This document shows, piece after piece, positions 305 to 58,312 of a DNA stretch of 64,000 bases. Source of the DNA: a virus; UHGV virus genome UHGV-1430452; one strand, given 5' to 3'. Each line of letters opens with the position of its first letter. Position 1 is the first letter of the stretch. Below the pieces are notes generated by a model. That model was not told the origin of the DNA. It searched no databases and saw only the letters and a program-made list of their open reading frames with translations. Position numbers and translations under genes: made by a program.

Positions 305-3300
305 TTACTTCACTCCTTTCAAATACTTAGATACTGTCGATGTAGAAACTCCCATCTTCTTAGCAATCTGTTCAAGTGTATAGTTAGATGCAGCCATTGC
401 TTTAGCTCTACTAACTTGTGCACTGCTTAGACTGTTGGTTAGTCTAGGAGTTGCTCGTTCTCTAAGGTTATCGATGTCTGTTGTGTTAAGGATTCTCTTA
501 AGCTGATTCTCACTAACAGCACCAGCTTGTATAGCTTCCCATTCTTTGTCACTGATCTCTATGTTACGATCTCTTCTAGAGATAGAGCCAACCTCTTGTC
601 TATACTTATTCAACGCCTGTTGGCTAAGCTTTCTCAACGGTTCTCCTTTAAGCTCTTCACCATGTTCTTCAAGGTAAGCCTTCTTCTTAGCTGCTATCTC
701 GGAATTAGCTTTTCGTTGAGCAGTTCTTTCTTTAATCTTATTGAGATCTGACTTATCGACTCTCTCCATTAAAGACTTAACCTCATCTCTATACGCAGCC
801 TTAGCACTTGCTGTTGTTTCGATCTTTCCTGTGTTAGCCATAGCTAATCTAGCTTTGTTACCAAGAGCTTTCATCTCATTAGCGTAGTCCGCATAGATAA
901 GTTCCATAGGATGTCTAGCTTTAGATACTAATTTATAAGCATCATCAGTCTCAGCCATCTTAGTACTTTGCTGCATACGGGTTTTAGTACGATATGTAAT
1001 ATCACCAGCGGCATTAGTATAGGTTACTTTCCCAGTGACGGGGTCTTTTTTCTCAATAGGGTTATACCTTTCGTAAGCTGCCTTATCTTTGGGATCATAT
1101 TCAATCTTCTTGCCATCAGCTGTTCGCACGGTAATAAGACCGGTCTTCTTATCTCGTTTTCTATCGACATAATATAGATCGTCGGCCTTCTTCCAAAGCT
1201 TGGCTCCATCTGGTTTGGTGGGGTCATAATCTTTACTACCTGGGATGTTTATTTTATATGAGCCTTGTCTTTTCTCAACTGAATATTGTCCCTTTGATCT
1301 TGATAAAATGGTAGAAGCTCCACCTGATCTTTCATTTCCGTCATCGTCAATACGAACCTGATACTTCTTTTTAAGTGCAGCAATATTGTTATCTATCTCA
1401 CTTTGTTTGTAATCAAGATGATGTTTCTCAGCATCAATAACAACCATGCTATGCTTAACTGCTCTTGCCAATTCTTTTTCATCAGCTCCAGCTAAAGTCA
1501 TATCAGTAATAAGATTGGATACAACACCCATCTGAGTTCCAGTGTTTTTCATGATGGGATATGCTTTTCCATTACGATAATAACGAACATTACCATCTGC
1601 ATCCTTCTTAGCAACACCACCATATTCAACCTTAGGATCAAATCCTTCAAGATCTTCAAGAGGTCGCTTATTAAGAATTTTTACCTTTCCACCTGGATCA
1701 TTGGTAGGAATACACATAACAGTATCGCCATCAAAGTCTGCACCTGAAAGCTGATCAGCAATCTTATGATTAATGCCGACTGCATCGATACTTTGTTTGC
1801 CAATTATTTTATCTCCCAGTGGATTCTTATTGTTAACTGTTAAGATAGGAATTTCAAATCGTCCGCCATGAGGATAACGAATAAGAGCGAGCTTAGTTCC
1901 ACTCTCGTAGTTTGGAGCATATACTTCATTGTCTTTTAAAGAGTTTATTGGAATAATAACGTGGTACTTCTGTCCAGGTAACGCTGCTGCTTTTAAATGT
2001 ACAGCCGCTGCATCGCAGCTATCTGCAAATTTCTCAAGCATATGTTTCTTAATAGTAGGATTAGTAATAGACATATACTCATCAAACTCAGCAAACTTAT
2101 CTTTCTTAGCAAGATCTAACTGTTTCTTAGCTAGAGTCTGTGACTGTTTAGCCAGGAACTGAGATGGTAATGCGTCCTGCCAATCATCCCAATCTCCTTC
2201 ATCGGATCTCTTATTAATGAGACCTAATTTCTTCTTACCGGTCTTAGGATCGTCATACCAATACTGTCCACCCTTGTCAGCATCTTTTATAAGAGAGCCA
2301 AATGGATTGTCTGGATCATCTTTCTTAATATTTTTAAGAACCGTACTTGTTTTATCGCCTAAAGCTGGAGTACCTTTTTTCTTATTCGTATTAAATATGA
2401 CATCTACTCCATCAGGCATGTTGTCAGAATATACTGCCATACCTTTAAGATAATGAGTTCCATCTACAAGAATACGAACCTGTGAATATCGTGAATCACC
2501 GAGATCAAGATCTTTACATCCTCTGCGAAGTTCAATGATACCGTCCTTATCAATACCCTTAAATCCATCAGCACCGACATCGTCTGCATATCGAACCATT
2601 AAACGTTTTGAATCAAGACTTGCAGGATATGTAAACTTCTTCTGGAATGTATCTCCTCCGTCTATTGATTCATAATCGTTAATTGTCTTTACTCTATCGT
2701 AGTCGTAGATTTCTTTATGTGCCGTTCCTGGTTTACAAAGAACTTTCTGGATGGTCTGTTGTCCTTTTGTATTTATCTGAGGAATACCACCAGTATACAC
2801 AGGATAACCTTCTGCTTTCTGTAAGTAATCAAGAGCAGTATTCAATCGTTCTTTGGATATGCCAAGAGATTTTTCAACACCAGCTGTTACATCGATCATA
2901 CCTTTTTGATCAACATGCTCTCGCAGAAAATCTACAGTCTCCATTGCCTGATGCATACGGTCTTCAGACTTAGGATTAAGAAGAGACCTTACTGTGGACT
3001 CTGGAATACCCATTTCTCTACCGATGGCAGTTGCTCCAAGTCCATCTTCTTTTAAAGATTTAGCTCTAGCTACCTGTTGTAATCTTTCTTCATAACCAGC
3101 CCAACTAATCTGCCTTCTATATTCTGTAGTTGTTAAGTCCATGGATTTAGCTATCGCATTATCTCCGGTCCAGGTCTTACCATTATCATCAGTGTAAGTA
3201 AAACCGGCTTTCTTAAGCTCTTTAACTCTTGCGAGGAAATCGGAACCATGTTGGTATCTATCTTTTCCACTTCCATAAGGATACCTACCGCTGCGGCGAG

Positions 3301-3475
3301 GCATACCATAATGCATAAGTTCATCTTCATTCGCGCTGTCTAAGCGATCAGACCAACCAAAATAAGAAAGGATCTCGTCAGCAACGGTGAACTCTTCATC
3401 GCTGTGCTCAAGATCCTCTTCTCCAAATATAGATTCTACAAGTTCGTTCAACGGAGGTTTCTCTAAGAACTCCAT
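305..3475 (-). CDS. large RNA polymerase-like protein (1056 aa): beta-prime-type double-psi beta-barrel motif ADFDGD preceded by IRYPHGGRFEIP; C-terminal HTH
   Basis: ADFDGD hexamer identical to multisubunit RNAP beta-prime NADFDGD; upstream R-x-P-H...F-E-P resembles the beta-prime NRxPTLHR...FEP block; HTH TLEQIAKKMGVSTSTVSKYLKG at C-terminus; start overlaps upstream stop with in-frame GAGGAGG. Confidence 0.85.
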   Translation of the reverse strand: MEFLEKPPLNELVESIFGEEDLEHSDEEFTVADEILSYFGWSDRLDSANEDELMHYGMPRRSGRYPYGSGKDRYQHGSDFLARVKELKKAGFTYTDDNGKTWTGDNAIAKSMDLTTTEYRRQISWAGYEERLQQVARAKSLKEDGLGATAIGREMGIPESTVRSLLNPKSEDRMHQAMETVDFLREHVDQKGMIDVTAGVEKSLGISKERLNTALDYLQKAEGYPVYTGGIPQINTKGQQTIQKVLCKPGTAHKEIYDYDRVKTINDYESIDGGDTFQKKFTYPASLDSKRLMVRYADDVGADGFKGIDKDGIIELRRGCKDLDLGDSRYSQVRILVDGTHYLKGMAVYSDNMPDGVDVIFNTNKKKGTPALGDKTSTVLKNIKKDDPDNPFGSLIKDADKGGQYWYDDPKTGKKKLGLINKRSDEGDWDDWQDALPSQFLAKQSQTLAKKQLDLAKKDKFAEFDEYMSITNPTIKKHMLEKFADSCDAAAVHLKAAALPGQKYHVIIPINSLKDNEVYAPNYESGTKLALIRYPHGGRFEIPILTVNNKNPLGDKIIGKQSIDAVGINHKIADQLSGADFDGDTVMCIPTNDPGGKVKILNKRPLEDLEGFDPKVEYGGVAKKDADGNVRYYRNGKAYPIMKNTGTQMGVVSNLITDMTLAGADEKELARAVKHSMVVIDAEKHHLDYKQSEIDNNIAALKKKYQVRIDDDGNERSGGASTILSRSKGQYSVEKRQGSYKINIPGSKDYDPTKPDGAKLWKKADDLYYVDRKRDKKTGLITVRTADGKKIEYDPKDKAAYERYNPIEKKDPVTGKVTYTNAAGDITYRTKTRMQQSTKMAETDDAYKLVSKARHPMELIYADYANEMKALGNKARLAMANTGKIETTASAKAAYRDEVKSLMERVDKSDLNKIKERTAQRKANSEIAAKKKAYLEEHGEELKGEPLRKLSQQALNKYRQEVGSISRRDRNIEISDKEWEAIQAGAVSENQLKRILNTTDIDNLRERATPRLTNSLSSAQVSRAKAMAASNYTLEQIAKKMGVSTSTVSKYLKGVK

Positions 3476-3478
3476 TCA

Positions 3479-4105
3479 TCACACCTCCTCGTTCATTCGC
3501 TCCAATGTTTTGCTATGCTGAATAATCGCATCCATTACAGGAAGGATTTCTTCTGCTGTAGGATTGTGGAATATAACTTCGTCGTTCTGGTAGATTCGCA
3601 ATTCAGTTTCAATCTCTCCAGGTTTGACTTTATACTCCAAACAAAAAAGAGCCGCATACACAAGTAGCTGCTCCATCTTCGCCGGAATTATACCGGACTT
3701 ATAATCATGTATTCTTAAGAAATTATTTCGGAATGAAATGGCATCTGCTGTACCGAAACAGTAATCAGAGTAATATAAGATCTGTTCCGGTGTTAACTTA
3801 AACCCAATTGCGTCATTAACGTAGGTCATAAAGTTACTGTAAATACGATCCATGTCTATAACATTTCTTGGGATACCGTCATTAAGTAGATGGGACAGTA
3901 CAGTTAACTTATCACCTTTCTTGAGTTTTAAGTTGTTGGATATTAATGTTTCAGCCAACTCGTGAAGCGATGTTCCCATGCTCTGCGCATAACCGCTAGC
4001 ATATTTCTGATAAAGCTGCTCTTCGGTATATCGCAACCAGTGAGGTTGGCTAGGAGCCAGGAAAGCATGTTTACCTCGCAGATTCAAATGCTTTTCGAAA
4101 ATCAT
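3479..4105 (-). CDS. PD-(D/E)XK nuclease, RecB/YqaJ/Cas4-like exonuclease fold
   Basis: HDYKSG...QLLVYAAL matches the D-x-K...Q-x-x-x-Y core of RecB-family nucleases; no C-terminal Cys cluster. Confidence 0.7.
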   Translation of the reverse strand: MIFEKHLNLRGKHAFLAPSQPHWLRYTEEQLYQKYASGYAQSMGTSLHELAETLISNNLKLKKGDKLTVLSHLLNDGIPRNVIDMDRIYSNFMTYVNDAIGFKLTPEQILYYSDYCFGTADAISFRNNFLRIHDYKSGIIPAKMEQLLVYAALFCLEYKVKPGEIETELRIYQNDEVIFHNPTAEEILPVMDAIIQHSKTLERMNEEV

Positions 4106-4437: not shown

Positions 4438-4511
4438 TGGACCCTCTGGGATTCGAACCCAGGACCGTCCGGTTATGAGCCGGATGCTCTAACCAACTGA
4501 ACTAAAGGTCC
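4438..4511 (-). tRNA. tRNA-Met (anticodon CAT), 74 nt, CCA not encoded
   Basis: hand-folded cloverleaf: acceptor GGACCTT/AGGGTCC, D-loop AGTTGGTTA, anticodon stem TCCGG/CCGGA with loop CTCATAA, T-loop TTCGAAT. Confidence 0.85.
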
Positions 4512-6529: not shown

Positions 6530-7027
6530 TTAAATGATATCTTTATGTTCACCTTTAAACCATAAAGAACCATCCTCGAAACCTTCAATCAGTACACAAG
6601 TTCCGACAATATCGGTTTCGTGCTTATTATGTTCCACAACCAAACGATTACCTACTGTTTTCCATGACGATAAAGCTCGTTCGTATTTTACTTTTGTATT
6701 ATACGCAGACACATATCTCTTTTCGTAACCGTCCAATCTCTGTTTTAATTTCTTTACCTCATCACCATCCGGTTTCTCTTTTTCAGTTTGCTCTTTCAAT
6801 CTGTCAAGAGTTTCCGTGATATTGTAAGGTAATTCCTTCAATCTGTTCTTGGAAGTACTCAAGTTTTTTGCTGCTTGCTTATGTAAATAATTCTCAAGCT
6901 TATCGATCTTGTCGATAATGTTCTTTGCGGTATCAATCACGATCCAATTAGAACCAAGTTTTGTACCTAAATAAATAATTTCGTTTTCTTCCTGTTTCTT
7001 TAAAAAGTTGATAAATGTTGTTTTCAT
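6530..7027 (-). CDS. hypothetical protein (165 aa), coiled-coil rich
   Basis: co-directional ORF with motif 34 nt upstream. Confidence 0.7.
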   Translation of the reverse strand: MKTTFINFLKKQEENEIIYLGTKLGSNWIVIDTAKNIIDKIDKLENYLHKQAAKNLSTSKNRLKELPYNITETLDRLKEQTEKEKPDGDEVKKLKQRLDGYEKRYVSAYNTKVKYERALSSWKTVGNRLVVEHNKHETDIVGTCVLIEGFEDGSLWFKGEHKDII

Positions 7028-25206: not shown

Positions 25207-25761
25207 TTAAAACTCAAACGGAATTTGTTCTACATCCCCGCCCTGAACAGTAACGCTCTGCATTAGCTGTCCAGTCTCTTCGTCGTAAAATAAATCATCC
25301 AAGAAATGATCAATGTCATCTTGAACGTCCTGGTCTGCCATTCTCATAACTTCATAGCCTTCAAGACCGATATGACGACGGAGTTTCTTCAAAACAGTAG
25401 CAGTCCATCTTCTGAATTTACGAGCTTCAAGTTTCTTACTAGAATATAAAGCTTCATATATACCGATCTCATTTACCGCCAACATCCAACGGTATCTATT
25501 TTCCCCTTTTGATCTATCCACCTTTGAAAGGTGATCAGATGATTCGTTATACCTTAAAGGTATATCAGATACGTCTACTCTAACTCTCATCATCATATCC
25601 GGATCTAATCTCTGAGATACTTTGAATGTTTTAAGTTCCAAAGCATTACAAATATCTTTCAGGATAGCCCACCATTCACCATCCTGCTCGATAAATCTAA
25701 TATCATATCCCATCCAATTCTCTGTTCTCATTTCGCTCATATTATTCTCCTTTCCTACCAA
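25207..25761 (-). CDS. Bro-N domain antirepressor-like protein
   Basis: YDIRFIEQDGEWWAILKDICNALEL resembles Bro-N. Confidence 0.65.
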   Translation of the reverse strand: MVGKENNMSEMRTENWMGYDIRFIEQDGEWWAILKDICNALELKTFKVSQRLDPDMMMRVRVDVSDIPLRYNESSDHLSKVDRSKGENRYRWMLAVNEIGIYEALYSSKKLEARKFRRWTATVLKKLRRHIGLEGYEVMRMADQDVQDDIDHFLDDLFYDEETGQLMQSVTVQGGDVEQIPFEF

Positions 25762-25966
25762 AACTTCACGTTACGAATCTTTCCACAGATCTTACACCGA
25801 CATCTAAATATGCCTACTTTAAAACCGCAGTAGTCGTAATAAATATCATGCGGTTTGTCTTCGAGTTTTTCCCATTCGTGAATATGAAACATACTATACC
25901 TCTCCTTTCTTATCAAAAATCCCACACTGATAAAATTTTAGTTAAAATAAAAAAAAAGAGGCCAGA

Positions 25967-27535
25967 CTATTTAGCCAAGCCCCTTTCGTTTAGTGCATCC
26001 TCAACTGCGGAATATCGATCTGAGTTAAGTTGCTCTAATAAGCACTCTAGCGGATCGGTGTTATTACTAAGCACCATATTGGTAATAATCGGACTAAATC
26101 CACTTACTAAAGCAACTCCTAGATCGTTCTCTTTTACTGGGATGGTTCCTGTTCTGCTACAAATGTTCCAGAATATCAATCTAGGAAGTTTATAGCCGTA
26201 CTGAGAGTAACGATCTGATATCGTATTAAACAGTGTTTTACTCGGTCTGATATTGCTCCATCTTGAACCTCCTTCGCAACTAGCACAGCTATCAAATTCC
26301 ATATCTGATAAGATAAGTATGTTTTTAGGAATGTCGTTCTGTGACATGTTATTGTTGATTGCTGTTTTGAGAATAAGTTCAAATACAGCTTCGATGTTTG
26401 TGTTAGCCACCTCGTTGTATCTCCTGGCAATTTCGATCTTTTCTCTCAAAGATTCTCCGTTACTAAGATCTACTAAACGAGGATTCATGCTGAATGTAAT
26501 ATATTTGTCTCTGAATTCACCAGAACTTCTTTCAGAAAAATATATTGCAAGAGCATTGGCTACCTCTAAAGCTGTTACACTTGTTCCGCCGACAGGACAG
26601 TCCATACTACCCGATCCGTCCGCAACGCAAATTGTGTTACCGTCTCCGTTTACATAATCGGGAAGTGCTTTCCACAATTCTTCAAGTGTAATGTCATCTT
26701 TACCTTTGAGTTTATTCCCGTACCAAAATTCACCCCGATCAAAGTATTTATGTACAATATCATGCGGGAATAGTACACCAGCATTGATTTTCGTCTCGCC
26801 TTTCTGCAAACTCGCTAAGTAACTACTTCTCCTTTCCTCATCGTTCTTCATAAACGCATTACCATATATAATATTGGCTCTTGATGGAACCGCAGAATAA
26901 TCAATCTTTGACCATTCTTTCTTACACATACTAACTTCCACAACTTTTAAATATGCACGAAGATCCGAAAGCATTTTACGATAGGATTTCTCGTTAATAA
27001 ATAACTTCTGAATCATAAGACGTGCTAGTCGTTTTGTCTCTTTAGACGAAGTGTTTGCAGACGGCATCCATTTAGCTAATAAAGAAATAGGCTCTCCTAG
27101 AGATCTCTTCCTTATATCACTTGTCAACTGTGTAGATACAATTGATACAACGTAGTCTGAAACGTCAGTGTCTAATAAACACCATAAATCATCCCATCTA
27201 CCGTATTCCGGAACCAACGGAATGATTGCCTTTGATATATCGGCATGTTTTTCGGATAGATACTTAAGACAATATCTGAATAATCTTCTTTCTCCGAGAC
27301 CTTCTCGTACATCTCTGGCATAGAACAACCACTTGATAGCAAGCTGTTTGTTTTCGTAGAATGTCTTTACAAACTTGTCTACGATTTCTCCCTCGTCCAT
27401 ATTTCGCATGGATGTTACTGAAAAGTTGATGTCAAGAAGTTCTTTACCAGTAGTACGGTAACCAACTGCTCCATTTTCAGTAAGGCTTGTGTTGAATTCA
27501 TCATTGATTGTTTCTTTCAGATTGTTCATAAACAT
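25967..27535 (-). CDS. vWA-domain protein with MIDAS motif (522 aa); possibly TROVE/Ro60-like or DUF2828-type
   Basis: ICVADGSGSM is a DxSxS MIDAS motif; helical N-terminal region; family assignment tentative. Confidence 0.7.
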   Translation of the reverse strand: MFMNNLKETINDEFNTSLTENGAVGYRTTGKELLDINFSVTSMRNMDEGEIVDKFVKTFYENKQLAIKWLFYARDVREGLGERRLFRYCLKYLSEKHADISKAIIPLVPEYGRWDDLWCLLDTDVSDYVVSIVSTQLTSDIRKRSLGEPISLLAKWMPSANTSSKETKRLARLMIQKLFINEKSYRKMLSDLRAYLKVVEVSMCKKEWSKIDYSAVPSRANIIYGNAFMKNDEERRSSYLASLQKGETKINAGVLFPHDIVHKYFDRGEFWYGNKLKGKDDITLEELWKALPDYVNGDGNTICVADGSGSMDCPVGGTSVTALEVANALAIYFSERSSGEFRDKYITFSMNPRLVDLSNGESLREKIEIARRYNEVANTNIEAVFELILKTAINNNMSQNDIPKNILILSDMEFDSCASCEGGSRWSNIRPSKTLFNTISDRYSQYGYKLPRLIFWNICSRTGTIPVKENDLGVALVSGFSPIITNMVLSNNTDPLECLLEQLNSDRYSAVEDALNERGLAK

Positions 27536-27585
27536 AGTTTTTCTCCTTTCTTACAAGACGGTTTTTAATCCCTTTGTTTTAAATT

Positions 27586-27740
27586 TGCTGTTACCGCCTT
27601 AGGTCAAGATGCTTCATTCTTCTTAATTGCCAACATTAAAAATTGCTGTTAGCATCTTAAAAAAGAAAAGAGAGTAGCTGTTACAAGATACTATAATTCG
27701 CTCATCCAATTGTTTTAATTAGTTGCTGTTAGTATCTTTA
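27586..27740. repeat. four copies of TTGCTGTTA(C/G)NATCTT-like repeat in the 5' leader of the vWA gene
   Basis: copies near 27586, 27641, 27673, 27721. Confidence 0.6.
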
Positions 27741-27759
27741 TTTAACTACTACTCTCTCT

Positions 27760-27784
27760 CATAATAGGTGTTGTAAATTTCGCG
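27760..27784 (-). promoter_or_regulatory. conserved promoter-like motif copy, ~225 nt upstream of vWA gene start
   Basis: cataataggtgttgtaaatttcgcg. Confidence 0.55.
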
Positions 27785-27787
27785 TCT

Positions 27788-27967
27788 CTAGACAAGTACA
27801 TACAACTGTCTTCCGTTCACAACACCACAAGCCTCAAGTTTTCCATAAGCCTTCAAAGTGTCTAAACCGTACTTACCAACCAGACTCACAATATAATCCT
27901 CGTAAATTGAATCCAGTCCTTCGCAGTCTTTCTTTATGATCTCGTAAACAGATTCTTCGTATGTCAT
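27788..27967 (-). CDS. small hypothetical protein (59 aa)
   Basis: missed by track; ATG with SD-like AAAGGGG. Confidence 0.45.
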   Translation of the reverse strand: MTYEESVYEIIKKDCEGLDSIYEDYIVSLVGKYGLDTLKAYGKLEACGVVNGRQLYVLV

Positions 27968-27986
27968 TTTAAGCAGCCCCTTTTAG

Positions 27987-28226
27987 TTAATAATCGCCAA
28001 GACCTCTAAATGAAGACGGGGAATACAAAACACTTCCGTCATCTGGGTTATTCCACCAATGTCCTCCGCCCGAAGTCGTGTAATCATCAGTTCCTATCAT
28101 TCCGTATTTATTTTTAATAACATAATTTCCGCTTTTATCCGGCTTCCCCTTTATAAAATCATTGAATAACGTTTTCCACATTTTATCGTTTCTATAATAT
28201 TTTTTCTTTAAGTCATCAATACTCAT
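27987..28226 (-). CDS. hypothetical protein (79 aa)
   Basis: co-directional ORF. Confidence 0.6.
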   Translation of the reverse strand: MSIDDLKKKYYRNDKMWKTLFNDFIKGKPDKSGNYVIKNKYGMIGTDDYTTSGGGHWWNNPDDGSVLYSPSSFRGLGDY

Positions 28227-44028: not shown

Positions 44029-44967
44029 TCAAATCATGTTGAGAATATCCCCATCCACATTGAAATCAAGAAGAATAGTTCTCTCATAACCGTTCACGAA
44101 GTTACGATTTGCCTCGTTGTAAGTGTTATAGATTCCGAAATCTACGAAATTATCACCTACTGGATGTTTCTCGTCATAAATCCATCCAACAATCTGACCT
44201 GCCTGTGTACGCGGGATTCCGAGCATATCATATACTTCATTCAGGAACAGATGACCTTTCGTTTTCAACATGTCATTTGCATAACGCTGCTGATCTTTAA
44301 GGAACATTAGATTGAATTCAGGATCTTTAGTCCATCCTGTACATCCATCATCGAAGAATTTAGCATAATCGCTGTAACTGTCGAGAGTTGCTACATTTGC
44401 TGTTTTCTTAACAGTAGTTTCTGTACCATCTTCATTTACAACAGTCTCTTCGATTTCTTTTGCTTTGATGTTGTACTTCAGTTCTTTATCAAGCTCTTCA
44501 CCAAATCTCTCAATAACACGACCACGATATTCCTTGAAGCCTTTGTCAATAGTTGCATAAGCGGCTGCAAGTGCTAAGTTACGTTTACGAAGAATATGAT
44601 GACCACTAAGAATAGCAGCGATAGAAACTGTTCCAAGGATTACTGCTGGAGCATAAAGTTTTGCTACCTTTACGGCTGTTTGAGTATACATGATAGTTAA
44701 ATCTTTCTTACCATCTTCTTCTGTGTACTCTTTACCTTCTGGAACCATATCTGGATTTTCCATAAATTCATGAATTTTCTCGATTTTTTCTTTTGGCTCA
44801 GCGAGCACCTCATCGAGTTTAGTAGTTGCTTTACATGCCATTACAGCAGAGCCAACTACACCAACAATACCTGCGCCAACCAAGATTTCAGGGCTATGCT
44901 TTTTAAATTTAAAACCTACACGATGGAGGCTTCTAGTTACTGTGTTCATAATTTCTAATTTTGCCAT
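44029..44967 (-). CDS. two-TM-anchored modular protein (312 aa), paralog family A (N-terminal domain shared with 47042 and 49330; C-terminal domain shared with 21525)
   Basis: N-terminal ...PEILVGAGIVGVVGSAVMACKAT... and C-terminal FFDDGCTGWTKDPEFNLMFLKDQQRY blocks. Confidence 0.75.
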   Translation of the reverse strand: MAKLEIMNTVTRSLHRVGFKFKKHSPEILVGAGIVGVVGSAVMACKATTKLDEVLAEPKEKIEKIHEFMENPDMVPEGKEYTEEDGKKDLTIMYTQTAVKVAKLYAPAVILGTVSIAAILSGHHILRKRNLALAAAYATIDKGFKEYRGRVIERFGEELDKELKYNIKAKEIEETVVNEDGTETTVKKTANVATLDSYSDYAKFFDDGCTGWTKDPEFNLMFLKDQQRYANDMLKTKGHLFLNEVYDMLGIPRTQAGQIVGWIYDEKHPVGDNFVDFGIYNTYNEANRNFVNGYERTILLDFNVDGDILNMI

Positions 44968-47041: not shown

Positions 47042-47869
47042 TTAATAGTAGCTATCGAAACCATATTCCGGAGGCATCAGATGATCAATAACAATACACG
47101 GTTCATTATCTTCCGTAATTTGAGCACTATATCTCACATCGATTTTGCCTTTATCGATTCTCCAACCGATGCTATTACCAACTTCGGTATGCTTAAGACC
47201 AATTTCGTCATAGAAATCATTCAGAGAAATATACATCTCGTTACCGTTGATCATTCTCTCATTAAGAGTAAGAACAGCATTTTTAATCTTGTCGATATCC
47301 GATCTGAAATATCTGTCGGAATGACTGTCATAACACAACGTGTTACCTTTACCTGTCATGATAATCTGAGTGTCTGCAACCGGATGTTCTTCAACTTGCT
47401 TCTTAGCGACTTTATCTCTGATGTTATTTTCCTTCTTCTCTCCGATAGTCTCTACCACTTTCTCTCTGTAGTCAGACAGTGCTGTTGTAGATAACTGATA
47501 TGCTGTTGCCAATGCTGCGTTACGTCTTACATGTACGGAATTAGCACCGATAAGACAAGCGACTGACGCAATGCCAGTGATAGCTGCTGGAATATAAGGT
47601 TTCCAAGCTGCTTTTACTGTTTCGACAGGTGTGAGATTTAAAGCGTTTCTTTCGTCTTCTTCTGTGAAAATACCGCCTTCATGAGCTTCTTTCTCTTTAA
47701 ACTTCTTCTCTTCCTCGATTAACTCCATAGCTTTTGGTGTTGCTTTTACTGCAAGCACAACAGTAGATATCATACCTGCGATACCAATGCCAGTAAGAAT
47801 TTCCGGACTGCGTTTTTTCATTACATATTTTGCAGTGTTTAAAAATTTTGTTACATTTGGTTTGTTCAT
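47042..47869 (-). CDS. two-TM-anchored modular protein, paralog family A (275 aa)
   Basis: N-terminal domain aligns with 44029 and 49330. Confidence 0.75.
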   Translation of the reverse strand: MNKPNVTKFLNTAKYVMKKRSPEILTGIGIAGMISTVVLAVKATPKAMELIEEEKKFKEKEAHEGGIFTEEDERNALNLTPVETVKAAWKPYIPAAITGIASVACLIGANSVHVRRNAALATAYQLSTTALSDYREKVVETIGEKKENNIRDKVAKKQVEEHPVADTQIIMTGKGNTLCYDSHSDRYFRSDIDKIKNAVLTLNERMINGNEMYISLNDFYDEIGLKHTEVGNSIGWRIDKGKIDVRYSAQITEDNEPCIVIDHLMPPEYGFDSYY

Positions 47870-47957: not shown

Positions 47958-48029
47958 AGAAACAGTGTAGGACTCGAACCCACAACCTACAGATATAAGT
48001 CTGTTGCTCTACCAATTGAGCTAACTGTT
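47958..48029 (-). tRNA. tRNA with atypical anticodon loop, probable anticodon TAT (Ile)
   Basis: acceptor AAACAGT/ACTGTTT, D-arm GCTC-AATTGGTA-GAGC, T-loop TTCGAGT; anticodon stem ACAG/CTGT with loop containing CTTATAT (6 or 8 nt by hand). Confidence 0.6.
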
Positions 48030-48034
48030 TCTTC

Positions 48035-49140: not shown

Positions 49141-49349
49141 GTGTAATGGATATGCTCATTGTTTAATTCGTCGAGATGTTTAATAAAATCTAAATATCTT
49201 TTATTTCGTCTATTCTCCACAAAGTTTATAACTAACCAAGCAATCCCTACGATAGGCAAGCCAACGAATACTAATAGAAATAGTAAGCATGTAATCATAG
49301 AAACAAGCGTATTCATAAATCTTCTCCTTTCAATACTCTTCGTAATCAA
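49134..49349 (-). CDS. small membrane protein (71 aa)
   Basis: two hydrophobic segments; track start may overextend into the motif. Confidence 0.55.
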   Translation of the reverse strand: MITKSIERRRFMNTLVSMITCLLFLLVFVGLPIVGIAWLVINFVENRRNKRYLDFIKHLDELNNEHIHYTR

Positions 49350-50106
49350 TGAACGGCTCTGTGAAATCTACAATATAACATTCAATACCGTCGTCCATTT
49401 CTACTTTTGTATGGTGGAAATATAGCCAACCATCCCAGTACATTTCATACATCTGAGCTGCGGACCAACCCATAAATTCACCGTAATCCTGTCGATCAAT
49501 CTCTAGTAAATCGTAATAATCGTTTAAAGATGCACCACCGGATTGAGATAGCATTTTATTAATCTCATACTCTGCTCTCAATTGAGTTTCTTTCGTCACA
49601 CGGTAATAACGTTTGGAATATTCATCGTAGAATAGTGTTTTGCCATCCTCGTATTCGTCGTCATATTCTTCTTTGTCTTCTTCCTCGTAATGGTCTTTTG
49701 CTACAGCAGCACGAATGAGTTTGTCTCCGTCTTCACCATATAACTTTTTAACTTTGTTTTTGTACTCTTTGTGAGTTTGGTCTAGTAAGGCATAAGCAGA
49801 TGCGATGGCTGCTTGGGAATGTTTGTTTAATAGATTCGCGCCAAATATGCAAGCTAGGGTTCCTGTTCCAATCAATAAGGAAGGAATATATGTTGGTCCT
49901 GCTACTCGAATAGTCTCCCATTTTGTTAATTCATCTCCTTTCTCTTCTTCAGCTAGTTCAATAAGTTCCATTGCTTTCGGAGTAGCTTTAACCGCCATTA
50001 CAGCTGTACCTACCACTCCGGCAGCTCCTAATACTGTTAATATAGTAGAGCTGTTTTTCTTTACGAATCTTTTCGAAACTGTTAGTAAGTCATTCATTTC
50101 CAGCAC
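49330..50106 (-). CDS. two-TM-anchored modular protein, paralog family A (258 aa)
   Basis: N-terminal domain aligns with 44029 and 47042. Confidence 0.75.
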   Translation of the reverse strand: MLEMNDLLTVSKRFVKKNSSTILTVLGAAGVVGTAVMAVKATPKAMELIELAEEEKGDELTKWETIRVAGPTYIPSLLIGTGTLACIFGANLLNKHSQAAIASAYALLDQTHKEYKNKVKKLYGEDGDKLIRAAVAKDHYEEEDKEEYDDEYEDGKTLFYDEYSKRYYRVTKETQLRAEYEINKMLSQSGGASLNDYYDLLEIDRQDYGEFMGWSAAQMYEMYWDGWLYFHHTKVEMDDGIECYIVDFTEPFIDYEEY

Positions 50107-56649: not shown

Positions 56650-56734
56650 GTCTACATAGGTTTACTCTATTTAAAGGAGGTGATGCCTGAATTCAGTTCA
56701 TCGTAGAATTTACATCAAAGGAAAGGTGGAACCA

Positions 56735-58312
56735 ATGACAACGTTTGATATGAACAACGCTGTAGACAATGCGTTCGGTATGGACGTATATGCTATCTAT
56801 CTTCGGAAAAGTCGAGCCGATGTAGAAGCAGAAAAACTTGGAGAAGGAGAAACACTAGCAAGGCATAGAAAGATACTAACAGAACTTGCTGCTAGAAAAG
56901 GATTGTATATCGGTAAGATTTACGAGGAAATTGTATCTGGTGAAACAATCGAAGCTAGACCTGAAATACAAAAACTGATAGAAGATTGTTATAAAGGGAA
57001 ATATAGAGGAATCCTAATAGTAGAAGTTACTCGTCTATCTCGTGGTAATCAAGGAGACGCTCAAAAAATACTCGACTGTCTCAAATATTCGAATAGAAAC
57101 AATGGTGTATTAGTTATCACTCCTACTAAGACTTATGACGTTGCACACAGCCAAGAAGACGAAGAATATATGGAGTTTGAATTGTTTATGTCTCGTCGAG
57201 AATATAAGATGATTCAAAAGCGTATGGATCGTGGCCGTAAACAAGCAGTCGTAGAAGGAAACTTCATGGGTAGTTACCGTCCCTATGGATATGACATCTT
57301 AAAAACCAAGACCGGACGAACACTTATACCGAATGAAGATGAAGCTCCTATCGTGAAAATGATTTACGAATGGACAGTTAACGATAATTTATCTCCTTTC
57401 AAGATAGCTGAGCGTTTAACTAATATGGGTGTTCCTACTTATTATGGTGAGAAGGATTGGTCTAAAGAAACAGTTAAAACCATTTTGACGAATCAGACAT
57501 ACATGGGTAAAGTTCGTTGGAATGATCGAATGACTGTTAAGACTATGGTCGACGGAGAACTTAAAGCTACACGACCTCGTTCAAATCATTCCGATCACTT
57601 CATGCTATATGATGGAAAACATATGAAACACGCACTCGTCGACGAAGAAACATTCAAAGCAGCCTCCTCTCGCTTTCATAACGATAGGACAAGATCAAAT
57701 CTAAAACTTGTTAATCCTCTTGCAGGACTTCTATTTTGTAAGAAATGTGGTAAATCTATGGGTTATCAATCATATAGACATAAGAAAAACGGACCAATGG
57801 ATCGATACAATCATAGACAGTCTGCTAATGGATGCAAGGTTAAGTCAGCAGTTGCTGAGGATGTTATAAAAGCTGTTATACATGCTTTGAAACTTTATAT
57901 AGAAGATTTCGAATTTAAGTTAGACAACACTCCAGATGTTGACGAAAATTCAATCAATACGCAGCTCGAAGCTTTACAAAAAGAAATACGAAAATCCGAA
58001 CGAAAACTTGCTAAGCTATTCGATTCTTGGGAAGATGAGAAGATAACAGATAATGAATTTGTTCAAAGGAAAGCCGTCCATAATCAGAAGATAGAAAATA
58101 TAAAGAGGCAAATGGAAGAACTCGAATATTCGATACCAGAAAGAGAAGAATATGAGGATAAAATAATATTGCTGTCTGAAGCACTTGTCGCTATCACAGA
58201 CGAATCGCTTGACGCAGATATTAAGAACGAGTATCTTAAAAGAATCATTGATAGAATAGAGTTTAGTAGAGAGAATAACTCAGAGTTTATACTAGATATA
58301 GACTTATGCTAA
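56735..58312 (+). CDS. large serine recombinase (phage integrase)
   Basis: N-terminal YAIYLRKSRAD catalytic-Ser motif, zinc ribbon CKKCGKS...C, C-terminal coiled coil; start moved to ATG with SD AAAGGTGGA. Confidence 0.85.
   Translation: MTTFDMNNAVDNAFGMDVYAIYLRKSRADVEAEKLGEGETLARHRKILTELAARKGLYIGKIYEEIVSGETIEARPEIQKLIEDCYKGKYRGILIVEVTRLSRGNQGDAQKILDCLKYSNRNNGVLVITPTKTYDVAHSQEDEEYMEFELFMSRREYKMIQKRMDRGRKQAVVEGNFMGSYRPYGYDILKTKTGRTLIPNEDEAPIVKMIYEWTVNDNLSPFKIAERLTNMGVPTYYGEKDWSKETVKTILTNQTYMGKVRWNDRMTVKTMVDGELKATRPRSNHSDHFMLYDGKHMKHALVDEETFKAASSRFHNDRTRSNLKLVNPLAGLLFCKKCGKSMGYQSYRHKKNGPMDRYNHRQSANGCKVKSAVAEDVIKAVIHALKLYIEDFEFKLDNTPDVDENSINTQLEALQKEIRKSERKLAKLFDSWEDEKITDNEFVQRKAVHNQKIENIKRQMEELEYSIPEREEYEDKIILLSEALVAITDESLDADIKNEYLKRIIDRIEFSRENNSEFILDIDLC

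Follow-up and report, generated by a model that had tools for sequence, protein, structure and literature searches.

The DUF2828 gene and its product

The window, i.e. the whole 64,000-nt stretch of viral DNA analyzed (UHGV-1430452), carries on its minus strand an open reading frame of 522 aa, starting with ATG (25967..27535) and preceded by a 252-nt leader that contains three copies of one RNA module. A Shine-Dalgarno sequence, AAAGGAG, can be read at 27543..27549 (minus), 7 nt ahead of the ATG and 5 nt past the last of the three hairpins. At the opposite end, a hairpin, GGCUAAAUAGUCUGGCC followed by UCUUUUUUUU (25960..25976, minus), overlaps the stop codon; terminator-like in shape, it appears to close the gene unit ahead of the neighbouring Bro-N ORF (25207..25761, minus), which had been recognized in a first-pass annotation made from the letters alone, and is assigned by a Pfam Bro-N match of 5.6e-11. 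This neighbour is not kept in the other loci encoding DUF2828 homologues. A search of region 25900-28000 found no nucleotide similarity to cultured phages.

The same annotation had described the 522-aa protein as helical in its N-terminal region and as ending in a vWA domain, the MIDAS motif of which reads DGSGSM, and the description holds. The motif corresponds to residues 306-311, within the vWA domain; D306, S308, S310, T379 and D411 are invariant among the 31 homologues compared, T379 and D411 presumably also belonging to the MIDAS site. According to structure prediction, the approximately 290 N-terminal residues are helical, and the C-terminal part adopts the alpha/beta vWA fold; the predicted fold thus has the order of Ro60/TROVE proteins, a helical-repeat ring domain and then a vWA domain.

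By sequence, the protein matches PF11443 (DUF2828; 117 bits, cut-off 29), PF25043 (DUF7788; 149 bits, cut-off 27.1) and, over residues 3-509, PHROG 850, labelled 'RNA-binding protein' (2e-139). DUF2828 and DUF7788 were both present in all 120 homologues among the matches listed. The seven best Foldseek matches are all Ro60, Rsr or TROVE structures, aligned over the full length (510-575 columns), and Pfam vWA_Ro60 (PF25045) gives sub-threshold matches in 23 of the 31 homologues, with a best E of 0.005. The TROVE profile PF05731 matched none of the 31 family members, even at E <= 10, and the Ro60 chains in the PDB were matched neither by a phmmer single-sequence search nor by the family profile. 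Of the affiliation originally proposed, 'Ro60/TROVE- or DUF2828-type', the DUF2828, DUF7788 and PHROG 850 matches and a fold that retrieves Ro60 first are confirmed, while a TROVE HMM match is absent. The likeness to Ro60 is at the level of the fold only, and the protein is best modelled as a divergent Ro60-like ring, in which helical repeats are joined to a vWA domain that keeps its MIDAS site intact.

Three hairpins in the leader

The module repeated in the leader consists of a 7-bp stem, AAGRYRS/SYRYCUU, a UA linker and an invariant loop start, ACAGCAA. On the sense strand, TAACAGCAA is found at 27593-27585, 27651-27643 and 27731-27723, with a variant, TAACAGCTA, at 27683-27675; over the window TAACAGCWA has 7 matches against 0.98 expected, a number reached by none of 100 shuffles. 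The three hairpins lie on the gene strand, 17-207 nt upstream of the ATG. In hairpin 1 (27682..27742, minus), corresponding to inverted repeat I3, AAGAUAC (27738-27732) pairs with GUAUCUU (27691-27685), and UA leads into ACAGCAA at 27729-27723. In hairpin 2 (27605..27662, minus), AAGAUGC (27658-27652) pairs with GCAUCUU (27612-27606), followed by UA and ACAGCAA (27649-27643), and the loop holds a further 5-bp stem with a 7-nt loop (UUAAU-GUUGGCA-AUUAA). In hairpin 3 (27552..27604, minus), the strands are AAGGCGG (27600-27594) and CCGUCUU (27561-27555), again with UA and ACAGCAA (27591-27585). The three stems differ by compensatory changes (AUAC/GUAU, AUGC/GCAU, GCGG/CCGU), and UAACAGCAA is invariant in all of them.

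The hairpins were searched with a covariance model, R2, built from other phages only, without any window sequence. Over the 64-kb window (128 kb searched), hairpins 1, 2 and 3 are the only matches, at 42.9 bits (E 1.8e-8), 29.5 bits (E 5.5e-5) and 43.5 bits (E 1.2e-8), respectively. The complete leader folds better than its shuffles (z = -3.9), and so does hairpin 2 (-16.1 kcal/mol, z -4.4); hairpin 3, taken alone, does no better than shuffled sequences (z -1.5). The inverted pair AAGATGC/GCATCTT, already noticed in the first reading, is real, being the stem of hairpin 2. Four leader repeats had been counted in that reading, and three are true modules. The fourth, UAACAGCUA (27683-27675, with ACAGCUA), was discarded: it is the 3' strand of an outer helix, and is absent from the closest orthologous leader used for comparison, L202. 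A ToxI-like array of 34-45-nt units, as in type III toxin-antitoxin systems, was also rejected, as the copies have only the 9-nt motif and the stem base in common; Tandem Repeats Finder reported nothing in 27400-27900.

The outer helix encloses hairpin 1, 27757-27743 pairing with 27683-27669, and together with the run UUUUCUUUUUU (27670-27661) spans 27661..27757 (minus). It corresponds to inverted repeat I1, 87% complementary, and folds with hairpin 1 at -29.7 kcal/mol (z -4.6). Outer helix and U-run are likewise present in L202, with altered sequence; their shape is like that of a terminator or of a discrete small RNA. The composite structure, rich in AT, contains internal loops as well as a loop of 29 nt ahead of UUUUCUUUUUU, and a terminator scan made no call on it; hairpins 2 and 3 have no U-run. 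Upstream, a weak sigma-70-like site, TAGAGA-18-TATTAT (27761..27790, minus), agrees with the consensus at 9 of 12 positions, and promoter-like sites in the region are not in excess over the shuffled expectation, so that the promoter announced by the first-pass annotation was not accepted as an established feature. The block around it, CGCGAAAxTTACA...CTATTATGAG (CGCGAAAUUUACA...CUAUUAUGAG; CGCGAAA...TATTATGAG), is kept in L202; the site remains a candidate promoter, from which transcription would start at the foot of the outer helix.

These features invite an interpretation of the hairpins as a purely cis-acting leader, in which the gene would be controlled by transcription attenuation where hairpin 1 meets its U-run, by hairpin 3 serving as a translational operator, or by both, with no role in trans. 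The resemblance of hairpin 1, outer helix and U-run to an intrinsic terminator fits this explanation, as does the distance of 5 nt between hairpin 3 and the Shine-Dalgarno sequence. The final hairpin also abuts the ribosome binding site in three related loci (L034, L043, L058) and in Campylobacter phage F370, and in Vibrio phage PC-Liy1 the start codon is enclosed by a short ACAGCAA hairpin. A single operator, however, has no need of multiple copies, and the distribution of the module in other phages, described below, makes an exclusively cis-acting role unlikely.

The module matches no catalogued RNA. At the gathering threshold, Rfam finds in the whole window two tRNAs only, and in 28 related loci only tRNA, tmRNA, HEARO and RAGATH-18, with no Y_RNA or YrlA; these two were absent also from the leader searched at E <= 10, which gave only spurious snoRNA, miRNA and rivX matches. 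Rfam has no family for the helix-UA-ACAGCAA hairpin, and the conserved motif, UAACAGCAA, is not the Ro-binding motif of Y RNA and YrlA (GGUCCGA / GNCGAAN0-1G). The hairpin RNA is not described in the literature consulted on DUF2828, phage TROVE and Y RNAs, mycobacteriophage Ro-like proteins, phage tRNA introns and the motif itself.

The module in other phages

Matches to R2 were found in 57 of 66 IMG/VR loci encoding homologues, for a total of 156, all of them on the gene strand and none on the other. In the same 66 loci the gene strand has 422 copies of ACAGCAA and the opposite one 26, and the corresponding hairpins are 200 and 4; flanking stems of 8 bp or more accompany 22% of the motifs, against 2.1% of random anchor positions. 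Among 16 hairpins from 7 phages, pairing is kept in 100% of the cells, and changes on both sides are seen for 7 of the 7 base pairs, counts taken from alignments chosen for, or fitted to, the stem. In an IMG/VR scan for the exact 15-mer AGACGCTAACAGCAA, about half of the matches had no stem, the loci being too short to reveal a DUF2828 gene.

These data bear on a reading of the repeats as DNA, either operator or iteron sites for the Bro-N protein or a repressor, or recombination sites. In its favour, the short repeats are intergenic and adjoin a regulatory-type gene. The conserved part, on the contrary, is asymmetric and confined to one strand, the flanking arms change in sequence yet keep their pairing, and the Bro-N gene does not accompany the repeats elsewhere; an action at the DNA level is thus very improbable.

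Eight of 10 cultured phages have 2-4 hairpins adjoining the gene: Bacillus Thrax3, Enterococcus PEF1, Listeria LP-048, Campylobacter F370, Mycobacterium Rumpelstiltskin, Salmonella FelixO1, Aeromonas LAh_6 and Klebsiella KP13-26, whose hosts belong to four bacterial lineages. The other two, Vibrio PC-Liy1 and Erwinia Kaldavass, gave no model match within 2.5 kb of the gene. Rumpelstiltskin, FelixO1 and KP13-26 have their hairpins downstream of the gene, and in many IMG/VR loci the hairpins are scattered among tRNAs at distances reaching 2 kb, positions at odds with a leader acting only in cis. So is the presence of the module within tRNA-like RNAs. In close relatives, such RNAs carry it in place of the anticodon arm (e.g. 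L204 938-1038); L203 965-1082 and L011 2569-2921 are further tRNA-like carriers, and some carriers, such as the L204 RNA, have no anticodon arm whatever. In related loci, tRNAs that are canonical in other respects have their anticodon arm broken by inserts of 38-51 nt, which follow nucleotide 28 or 31, on the 5' side of the anticodon. An element at first taken as hammerhead-like, CUGAUGAG, in L034, L043 and L058 is not a hammerhead, and scores as a sub-threshold tRNA-Sec-like RNA.

Such carriers suggest that the hairpins could be tRNA-derived elements independent of the DUF2828 protein, whose gene would merely share the tRNA neighbourhood; they could serve as decoys for host anticodon nucleases, as processing punctuation for RNase P, Z or E, or as an intron-like cassette. 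Many loops do contain an anticodon-arm-like hairpin (5 bp and CUNNNAA), the module interrupts tRNAs that look normal otherwise, most homologous loci have their hairpins inside tRNA arrays, and stable RNAs of unknown function are common in phage tRNA clusters, as in T4 and T5. Against this, the two tRNAs of the window (4438-4511 and 47958-48031) have no hairpins nearby, all three being at the DUF2828 gene. The whole Rumpelstiltskin genome (69.7 kb) has three matches only, none of them more than 300 nt from the gene, whereas its sole tRNA, 21 kb off, has none. In FelixO1 (58 kb scanned) the only four matches are within 1.2 kb of the gene, and the stretch of the array that holds the rest of the annotated tRNAs gave no match; the T4 and T5 tRNA regions, which encode no DUF2828 homologue, gave 0 matches. 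The idea that tRNA arrays carry the hairpin as a general rule was rejected on these four grounds. The DUF2828 gene is the one constant neighbour of the hairpins across four bacterial phyla, and a function independent of its product appears rather unlikely.

A putative Ro60-type ribonucleoprotein and its counterparts

On balance we consider it somewhat more probable than not that the locus is a phage Ro60-type RNP module, formed by a DUF2828-family protein and an uncatalogued family of hairpin RNAs. The hairpin is probably the RNA partner of the protein, because it recurs beside the homologous gene in very different phages. Since in most loci the hairpins are inside tRNA arrays, another tRNA-acting factor could be the real ligand. 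The leader had originally been suspected of regulated expression or of an embedded RNA, and this is supported by a structured module kept beside homologous genes of many unrelated phages, always on the gene strand, whose binding by the protein we infer. A plain untranslated leader, with a protein lacking any TROVE-like similarity, would have been the opposite outcome; a Ro60-like predicted fold and a conserved structured RNA were found instead.

Each leader hairpin would offer an identical recognition unit, a helix strand running 5'->3' into UA-ACAGCAA, which the DUF2828 protein may bind much as Ro60 recognizes a helix and a 5'-strand motif in Y RNAs. All three hairpins are probably co-transcribed with the gene; hairpin 1, with outer helix and U-run, may also be freed as a separate RNA of about 95 nt. 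With only 5 nt between the end of hairpin 3 and the Shine-Dalgarno sequence, the protein, once bound there, could also reduce its own translation. Judging from the Ro60/Rsr-Y RNA complexes, RNA metabolism during infection is where the RNP would act. Homologous genes adjoin tRNA arrays and tRNA-like RNAs, and in some cases also genes for RtcB or an RNA ligase; for this reason phage tRNA maturation, surveillance or repair, or the control of a host exoribonuclease, are candidate roles. A more specific version, which we regard as speculative and not likely, takes helix-UA-ACAGCAA as a portable tag put by phages into tRNAs and tRNA mimics, either 5' of the anticodon arm or instead of it, and read by the DUF2828 ring, both forming a hitherto unknown protein-guided tRNA pathway. 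Tag reading would then help phages to mature, splice or repair their tRNAs or to counter host defence, for instance as a mini-intron of about 45 nt excised with RtcB or RNA ligase, or as a shield or decoy against host anticodon nucleases, and the stand-alone hairpins of the window would represent this tag at its simplest.

DUF2828/PHROG 850 is a functionally uncharacterized family of phage proteins, and a very large one: at least 8000 clusters matched in the search for homologues, and 711 of 50,697 cultured phage genomes encode a member, including FelixO1-like phages, Herelleviridae (Listeria, Enterococcus), Campylobacter phages and cluster L mycobacteriophages. Should the UAACAGCAA hairpin prove to be the ligand, the family would have an RNA partner and a mechanistic frame, that of a Ro60/Y-RNA-like RNP associated with phage tRNA clusters and with genes for RNA repair. 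The Ro60 mode, a ring protein with neighbouring tRNA-mimicking RNAs, would then reach beyond TROVE with another RNA code, and some unexplained non-coding stretches and over-long 'tRNAs' of phage tRNA arrays would acquire a purpose.

Among known systems, the operators of T4 RegA, gp32, gp43 and MS2 coat protein are hairpins near the ribosome binding site, recognized by the product of the gene. Hairpin 3, 5 nt before the Shine-Dalgarno sequence, is similarly placed, but here there are at least three copies, and several phages have them downstream, or far upstream among tRNAs. The small RNAs of T4 (rnaC, rnaD) and T5 (RNAI, RNAIII, RNA1-3) are, according to their annotation, short, structured, partly tRNA-like and located among phage tRNA genes; unlike them, the window hairpins are away from tRNA genes, and neither T4 nor T5 has a match to the hairpin model in its tRNA region. 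The 38-51-nt inserts in the anticodon arm recall tRNA introns, either archaeal and eukaryotic ones with a bulge-helix-bulge or bacterial group I introns of anticodon loops; they are far too short for the latter, and follow nucleotide 28 or 31 instead of position 37/38.

The Ro60/Rsr proteins and their Y RNAs, which in bacteria are YrlA and YrlB, are likewise among the closest counterparts, binding and PNPase tethering being putative here. Several differences must be considered. The protein is, by sequence, DUF2828/DUF7788 and not TROVE; the recognition unit is helix-UA-ACAGCAA, against GGUCCGA, GNCGAA or CGAA in a bulged helix; and the window RNAs are simple hairpins in an mRNA leader, with neither T nor D arm according to ARAGORN and the Rfam tRNA model. 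On the other hand, both systems combine a ring-type helical domain with a vWA/MIDAS domain, the best structural matches being Ro60 proteins, and the DUF2828 gene is sometimes linked to genes for RtcB or RNA ligase, as in Ro60/Rsr systems. In both, small structured RNAs, often multicopy, lie from a few hundred nt to a few kb from the gene, on the same strand. YrlA was itself defined by small structured RNA genes near the Ro60 gene, on the same strand and often multicopy (PMC4201824), and phage phiLo has two Y-like RNAs, Yrl1 and Yrl2, just upstream of its Ro60 gene and bound by phiLo Ro60 (PMC12135203). The tRNA-like RNAs of the relatives, with the module where the anticodon arm would be, extend the parallel, since YrlA is a tRNA-like RNA whose layout matches that of these carriers (PMC4201824).

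The DUF2828 gene and its leader

The DUF2828 gene (25967..27535, minus strand; 522 aa, ATG start) carries an AAAGGAG Shine-Dalgarno sequence 7 nt ahead of the ATG. Its non-coding leader, 252 nt long, is limited upstream by the stop codon (27788) of a 59-aa ORF, and a hairpin followed by a T-run (25976..25960, minus strand) ends the unit. The Bro-N neighbour reported in the first-pass annotation was found as an ORF downstream of the gene (25207..25761; Pfam, 5.6e-11). The window as a whole is of phage origin. Among its products are tail fibre proteins, a primase-polymerase, a large serine integrase and a 1056-aa protein (305-3475, minus strand) matching PHROG 4291, labelled 'RNA-dependent RNA polymerase', which we interpret as a phage RNA polymerase of the YonO type. 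This protein bears a C-terminal HTH/HNH-like tail, and a tRNA-Met (4438-4511) lies just upstream of its gene. A second tRNA (47958-48031, minus strand; Rfam, 62 bits), reported by ARAGORN as 'tRNA-???' with anticodon 'ta' and an unassigned loop, sits amid three paralogous PHROG 2152 genes (44029-44967, 47042-47869 and 49330-50106, minus strand).

Four repeats had been described in the leader. Three are exact copies of UAACAGCAA on the sense strand (27593-27585, 27651-27643 and 27731-27723), and the fourth is a variant, UAACAGCUA, at 27683-27675; the repeat pattern is matched at 7 positions of the window, where about 1 match is expected. Each exact copy opens the loop of a hairpin with a 7-bp stem of the form AAGRYRS/SYRYCUU: AAGAUAC/GUAUCUU in hairpin 1, AAGAUGC/GCAUCUU in hairpin 2 and AAGGCGG/CCGUCUU in hairpin 3, the nearest to the ATG. 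The inverted pair AAGATGC/GCATCTT, also noticed earlier, is the stem of hairpin 2. The stems differ from each other by compensatory changes and the start of the loop is constant; these changes, together with strand specificity, contradict a reading of the repeats as sites acting at the DNA level. The fourth repeat was rejected as a further module, being merely the 3' strand of an outer helix (27757-27743 with 27683-27669), which encloses hairpin 1 and is followed by UUUUCUUUUUU. Hairpin 1 with its outer helix folds at -29.7 kcal/mol (z = -4.6). L202, the closest orthologous leader (its protein shares 75% identity), retains both the outer helix and the U-run, but not the sequence of the fourth repeat.

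The promoter proposed upstream of the gene is a weak match to the consensus; the block surrounding it is conserved in L202. This block, CGCGAAAxTTACA...CTATTATGAG, also written CGCGAAA(U/A)UUACA...CUAUUAUGAG, is found at 27761-27800 (minus strand) in the window and at about 870-905 in L202, with differing flanks. It is a candidate promoter, from which transcription would start at the base of the outer helix around hairpin 1, and it might be read by the phage's own PHROG 4291 polymerase.

Conservation of the hairpin and its genomic partner

Hairpins were searched for in 66 IMG/VR loci encoding homologues of the window protein. Of the occurrences of the loop motif ACAGCAA, 422 are on the gene strand and 26 on the opposite one; for hairpins anchored on the motif the counts are 200 and 4, and they are most frequent in the 250 nt that precede the start codon. 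For 22% of the motifs, versus 2.1% of random anchor positions, the flanks pair into a stem of 8 bp or longer. The resulting consensus is [U]AAGRCNN-(UA)-ACAGCAA-N(11-95)-NNGYCUU-G. A covariance model, R2, was built from 69 hits taken exclusively from loci other than the window. By scanning the whole window with it (both strands, filters off), only the three leader hairpins were significant (E 1e-8, 2e-8 and 5e-5), and none was found near the tRNAs at 4438-4511 and 47958-48031. In the 66 loci the model produced 156 matches, distributed over 57 of them and all on the gene strand. In an alignment of 16 hairpins from 7 phages every cell is paired and all 7 base pairs are changed on both sides, a result biased toward structure because the alignment was fitted to the model.

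A degenerate copy of the hairpin lies on the opposite strand at 56866-56942 (plus), within the serine integrase ORF (56726-58312). It has AAAGATACTAACAG in common with hairpin 1, a 14-nt identity unlikely to be due to chance, and scores E 0.004 with R1, another hairpin model, and 0.2 with R2.

Since the DUF2828 gene lies within a tRNA array in most metagenomic loci, gene and array were compared as what the hairpin follows. Homologues at 30-41% identity are present in 711 genomes of cultured phages. Eight of the ten phages examined carry 2-4 hairpins directly beside the DUF2828 gene, on the same strand: upstream in Bacillus Thrax3 (3), Enterococcus PEF1, Listeria LP-048 (3), Campylobacter F370 and Aeromonas LAh_6, downstream in Mycobacterium Rumpelstiltskin (3), Salmonella FelixO1 and Klebsiella KP13-26. 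The downstream location in three phages weakens the view that the hairpins are a purely cis-acting leader. The whole genome of Rumpelstiltskin contains just the three gene-side matches, 21 kb from its sole tRNA. In FelixO1 (58 kb scanned), all four matches fall within 1.2 kb of the gene; the more distant stretch of the array, where the remaining annotated tRNAs lie, has none, and the tRNA regions of T4 and T5 gave no matches. These results, with those on the window, also weaken the alternative that the hairpins are tRNA-derived elements independent of the DUF2828 protein. Taken with the other cultured phages, they show that it is the DUF2828 gene that the hairpin accompanies, in phages of Firmicutes, Actinobacteria, Gamma- and Epsilonproteobacteria.

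In the two other cultured phages, Vibrio PC-Liy1 and Erwinia Kaldavass, the model had no match near the gene. PC-Liy1 lacks the full hairpins but has a single short one, GACAU-UUU-ACAGCAA-...-AUGUC (L196 2455-2500), that brackets both the RBS and the start codon of its DUF2828 gene, a hint of translational autoregulation. In PEF1 (L188), a tmRNA (Rfam, 150 bits) was recognized at 437-787, a stretch for which the record lists nothing but small hypothetical CDSs, and several other tiny 'CDSs' between tRNAs (3435-3872) overlap hairpin matches.

A predicted Ro60-like fold

The window protein matches DUF2828 (1e-33) and DUF7788 (1.5e-43) in Pfam, and PHROG 850, 'RNA-binding protein' (2e-139). Its homologues fill over 8000 database clusters; among the matches listed (120), all have both domains. 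The MIDAS residues noticed in the vWA domain, D306, S308 and S310, are invariant in an alignment of 31 homologues. The protein's architecture had been likened to the Ro60/TROVE or DUF2828 type: DUF2828 is supported by Pfam and Ro60 by the fold, but not TROVE by sequence. No match to TROVE (PF05731) was obtained at E <= 10 for any of the 31 family members, and Ro60 chains in PDB were matched neither by the protein nor by the family profile; the sole sequence signal toward Ro60 is a sub-threshold match of 23 of the 31 members to the Ro60 vWA model. A structure was predicted by AlphaFold2 from the 31-sequence alignment (pLDDT 77, pTM 0.68), and the top 7 matches found with it by Foldseek were all Ro60/Rsr/TROVE structures, over 510-575 aligned columns. 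This match suggests that the protein works like Ro60, to which it is probably distantly related. It does not belong to the TROVE sequence family.

tRNA-like carriers and relation to known systems

In relatives, the module is also found within tRNA-shaped RNAs, as a local hairpin with UA-ACAGCAA directly following its 3' strand. Many 'tRNAs', 110-124 nt long, are matched by the Rfam tRNA model and missed by ARAGORN; in these, 38-51 nt are inserted behind nucleotide 28 or 31, on the 5' side of an anticodon loop that is otherwise canonical. The insert reads [hairpin]-UA-ACAGCAA-~10 nt, and the anticodons are GUU, UUU, GUC, GCC and GGG. Examples are found in related loci L011 (2569-2682, 2689-2803, 2808-2921), L002, L004, L009, L013, L014, L026, L029, L033, L038 and L039. 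In two loci, beside homologues 71-72% identical to the window protein, the anticodon arm has largely or wholly given way to the module (L204 938-1038; L203 965-1082, 578-700 and 330-441), and these RNAs are therefore regarded as tRNA mimics, not decoders; at L204 938-1038 and L203 965-1082 the entire arm is replaced. Stand-alone hairpins often have an anticodon-arm-like hairpin inside, and sometimes a T arm.

Other structured RNAs were met in these loci. An element of about 88 nt, GC-rich and containing CUGAUGAG, lies at L043 2813-2900; L034 and L058 have similar sequences immediately ahead of the gene. It was considered as a hammerhead and discarded as such: its score is that of a tRNA-Sec-like RNA (38 bits, sub-threshold against a gathering score of 47), and its anticodon loop is CUUGAAA. 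In one IMG/VR contig (L047), HEARO (1317-1546, 118 bits) and RAGATH-18 (6900-6974, 68 bits) flank the DUF2828 homologue on either side.

Some of the phages encode RNA repair enzymes (RtcB, RNA ligase or polynucleotide kinase), either close to the DUF2828 gene or at another place in the genome. LP-048 has an RtcB-like ligase (L191 6843-8054) 1.3 kb downstream of that gene, Kaldavass has an RNA ligase (L198 567-1832) some 650 nt upstream of it, and Rumpelstiltskin has a polynucleotide kinase and an RNA ligase (L194 6762-7688, 10832-12130).

We consider it reasonably probable that the locus encodes a Ro60-type RNP, in which the DUF2828 ring would bind the helix-UA-ACAGCAA unit of RNAs encoded next to it. 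The window RNAs would be the three minimal hairpins of the leader; hairpin 1 may be released on its own, as an RNA some 95 nt long, and hairpin 3 may also serve as a translational operator, possibly for autoregulation. The complex would act on RNA metabolism, most plausibly in quality control or repair of phage tRNAs, or in the control of a host exoribonuclease.

No family in Rfam 15 matches the hairpin, and the literature, incompletely covered, provided neither a description of it nor a function for DUF2828. What appears to be new is an RNA family that is linked to DUF2828 and has a motif of its own, and the insertion of this RNA into tRNAs. Ro60/Y-RNA modules of phages are already known: phage phiLo, the precedent for the action proposed here, combines Ro60 with two upstream Y-like RNAs and host PNPase (PMC12135203). 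The grouping with RNA repair genes has a parallel in the rsr-yrlA-rtcB operons of bacteria (PMC7790460), and YrlA was defined as a Ro60 partner by the same kind of linkage evidence (PMC4201824). The tRNA mimics of relatives are laid out like YrlA, in which the protein-binding module takes the place of the anticodon arm.
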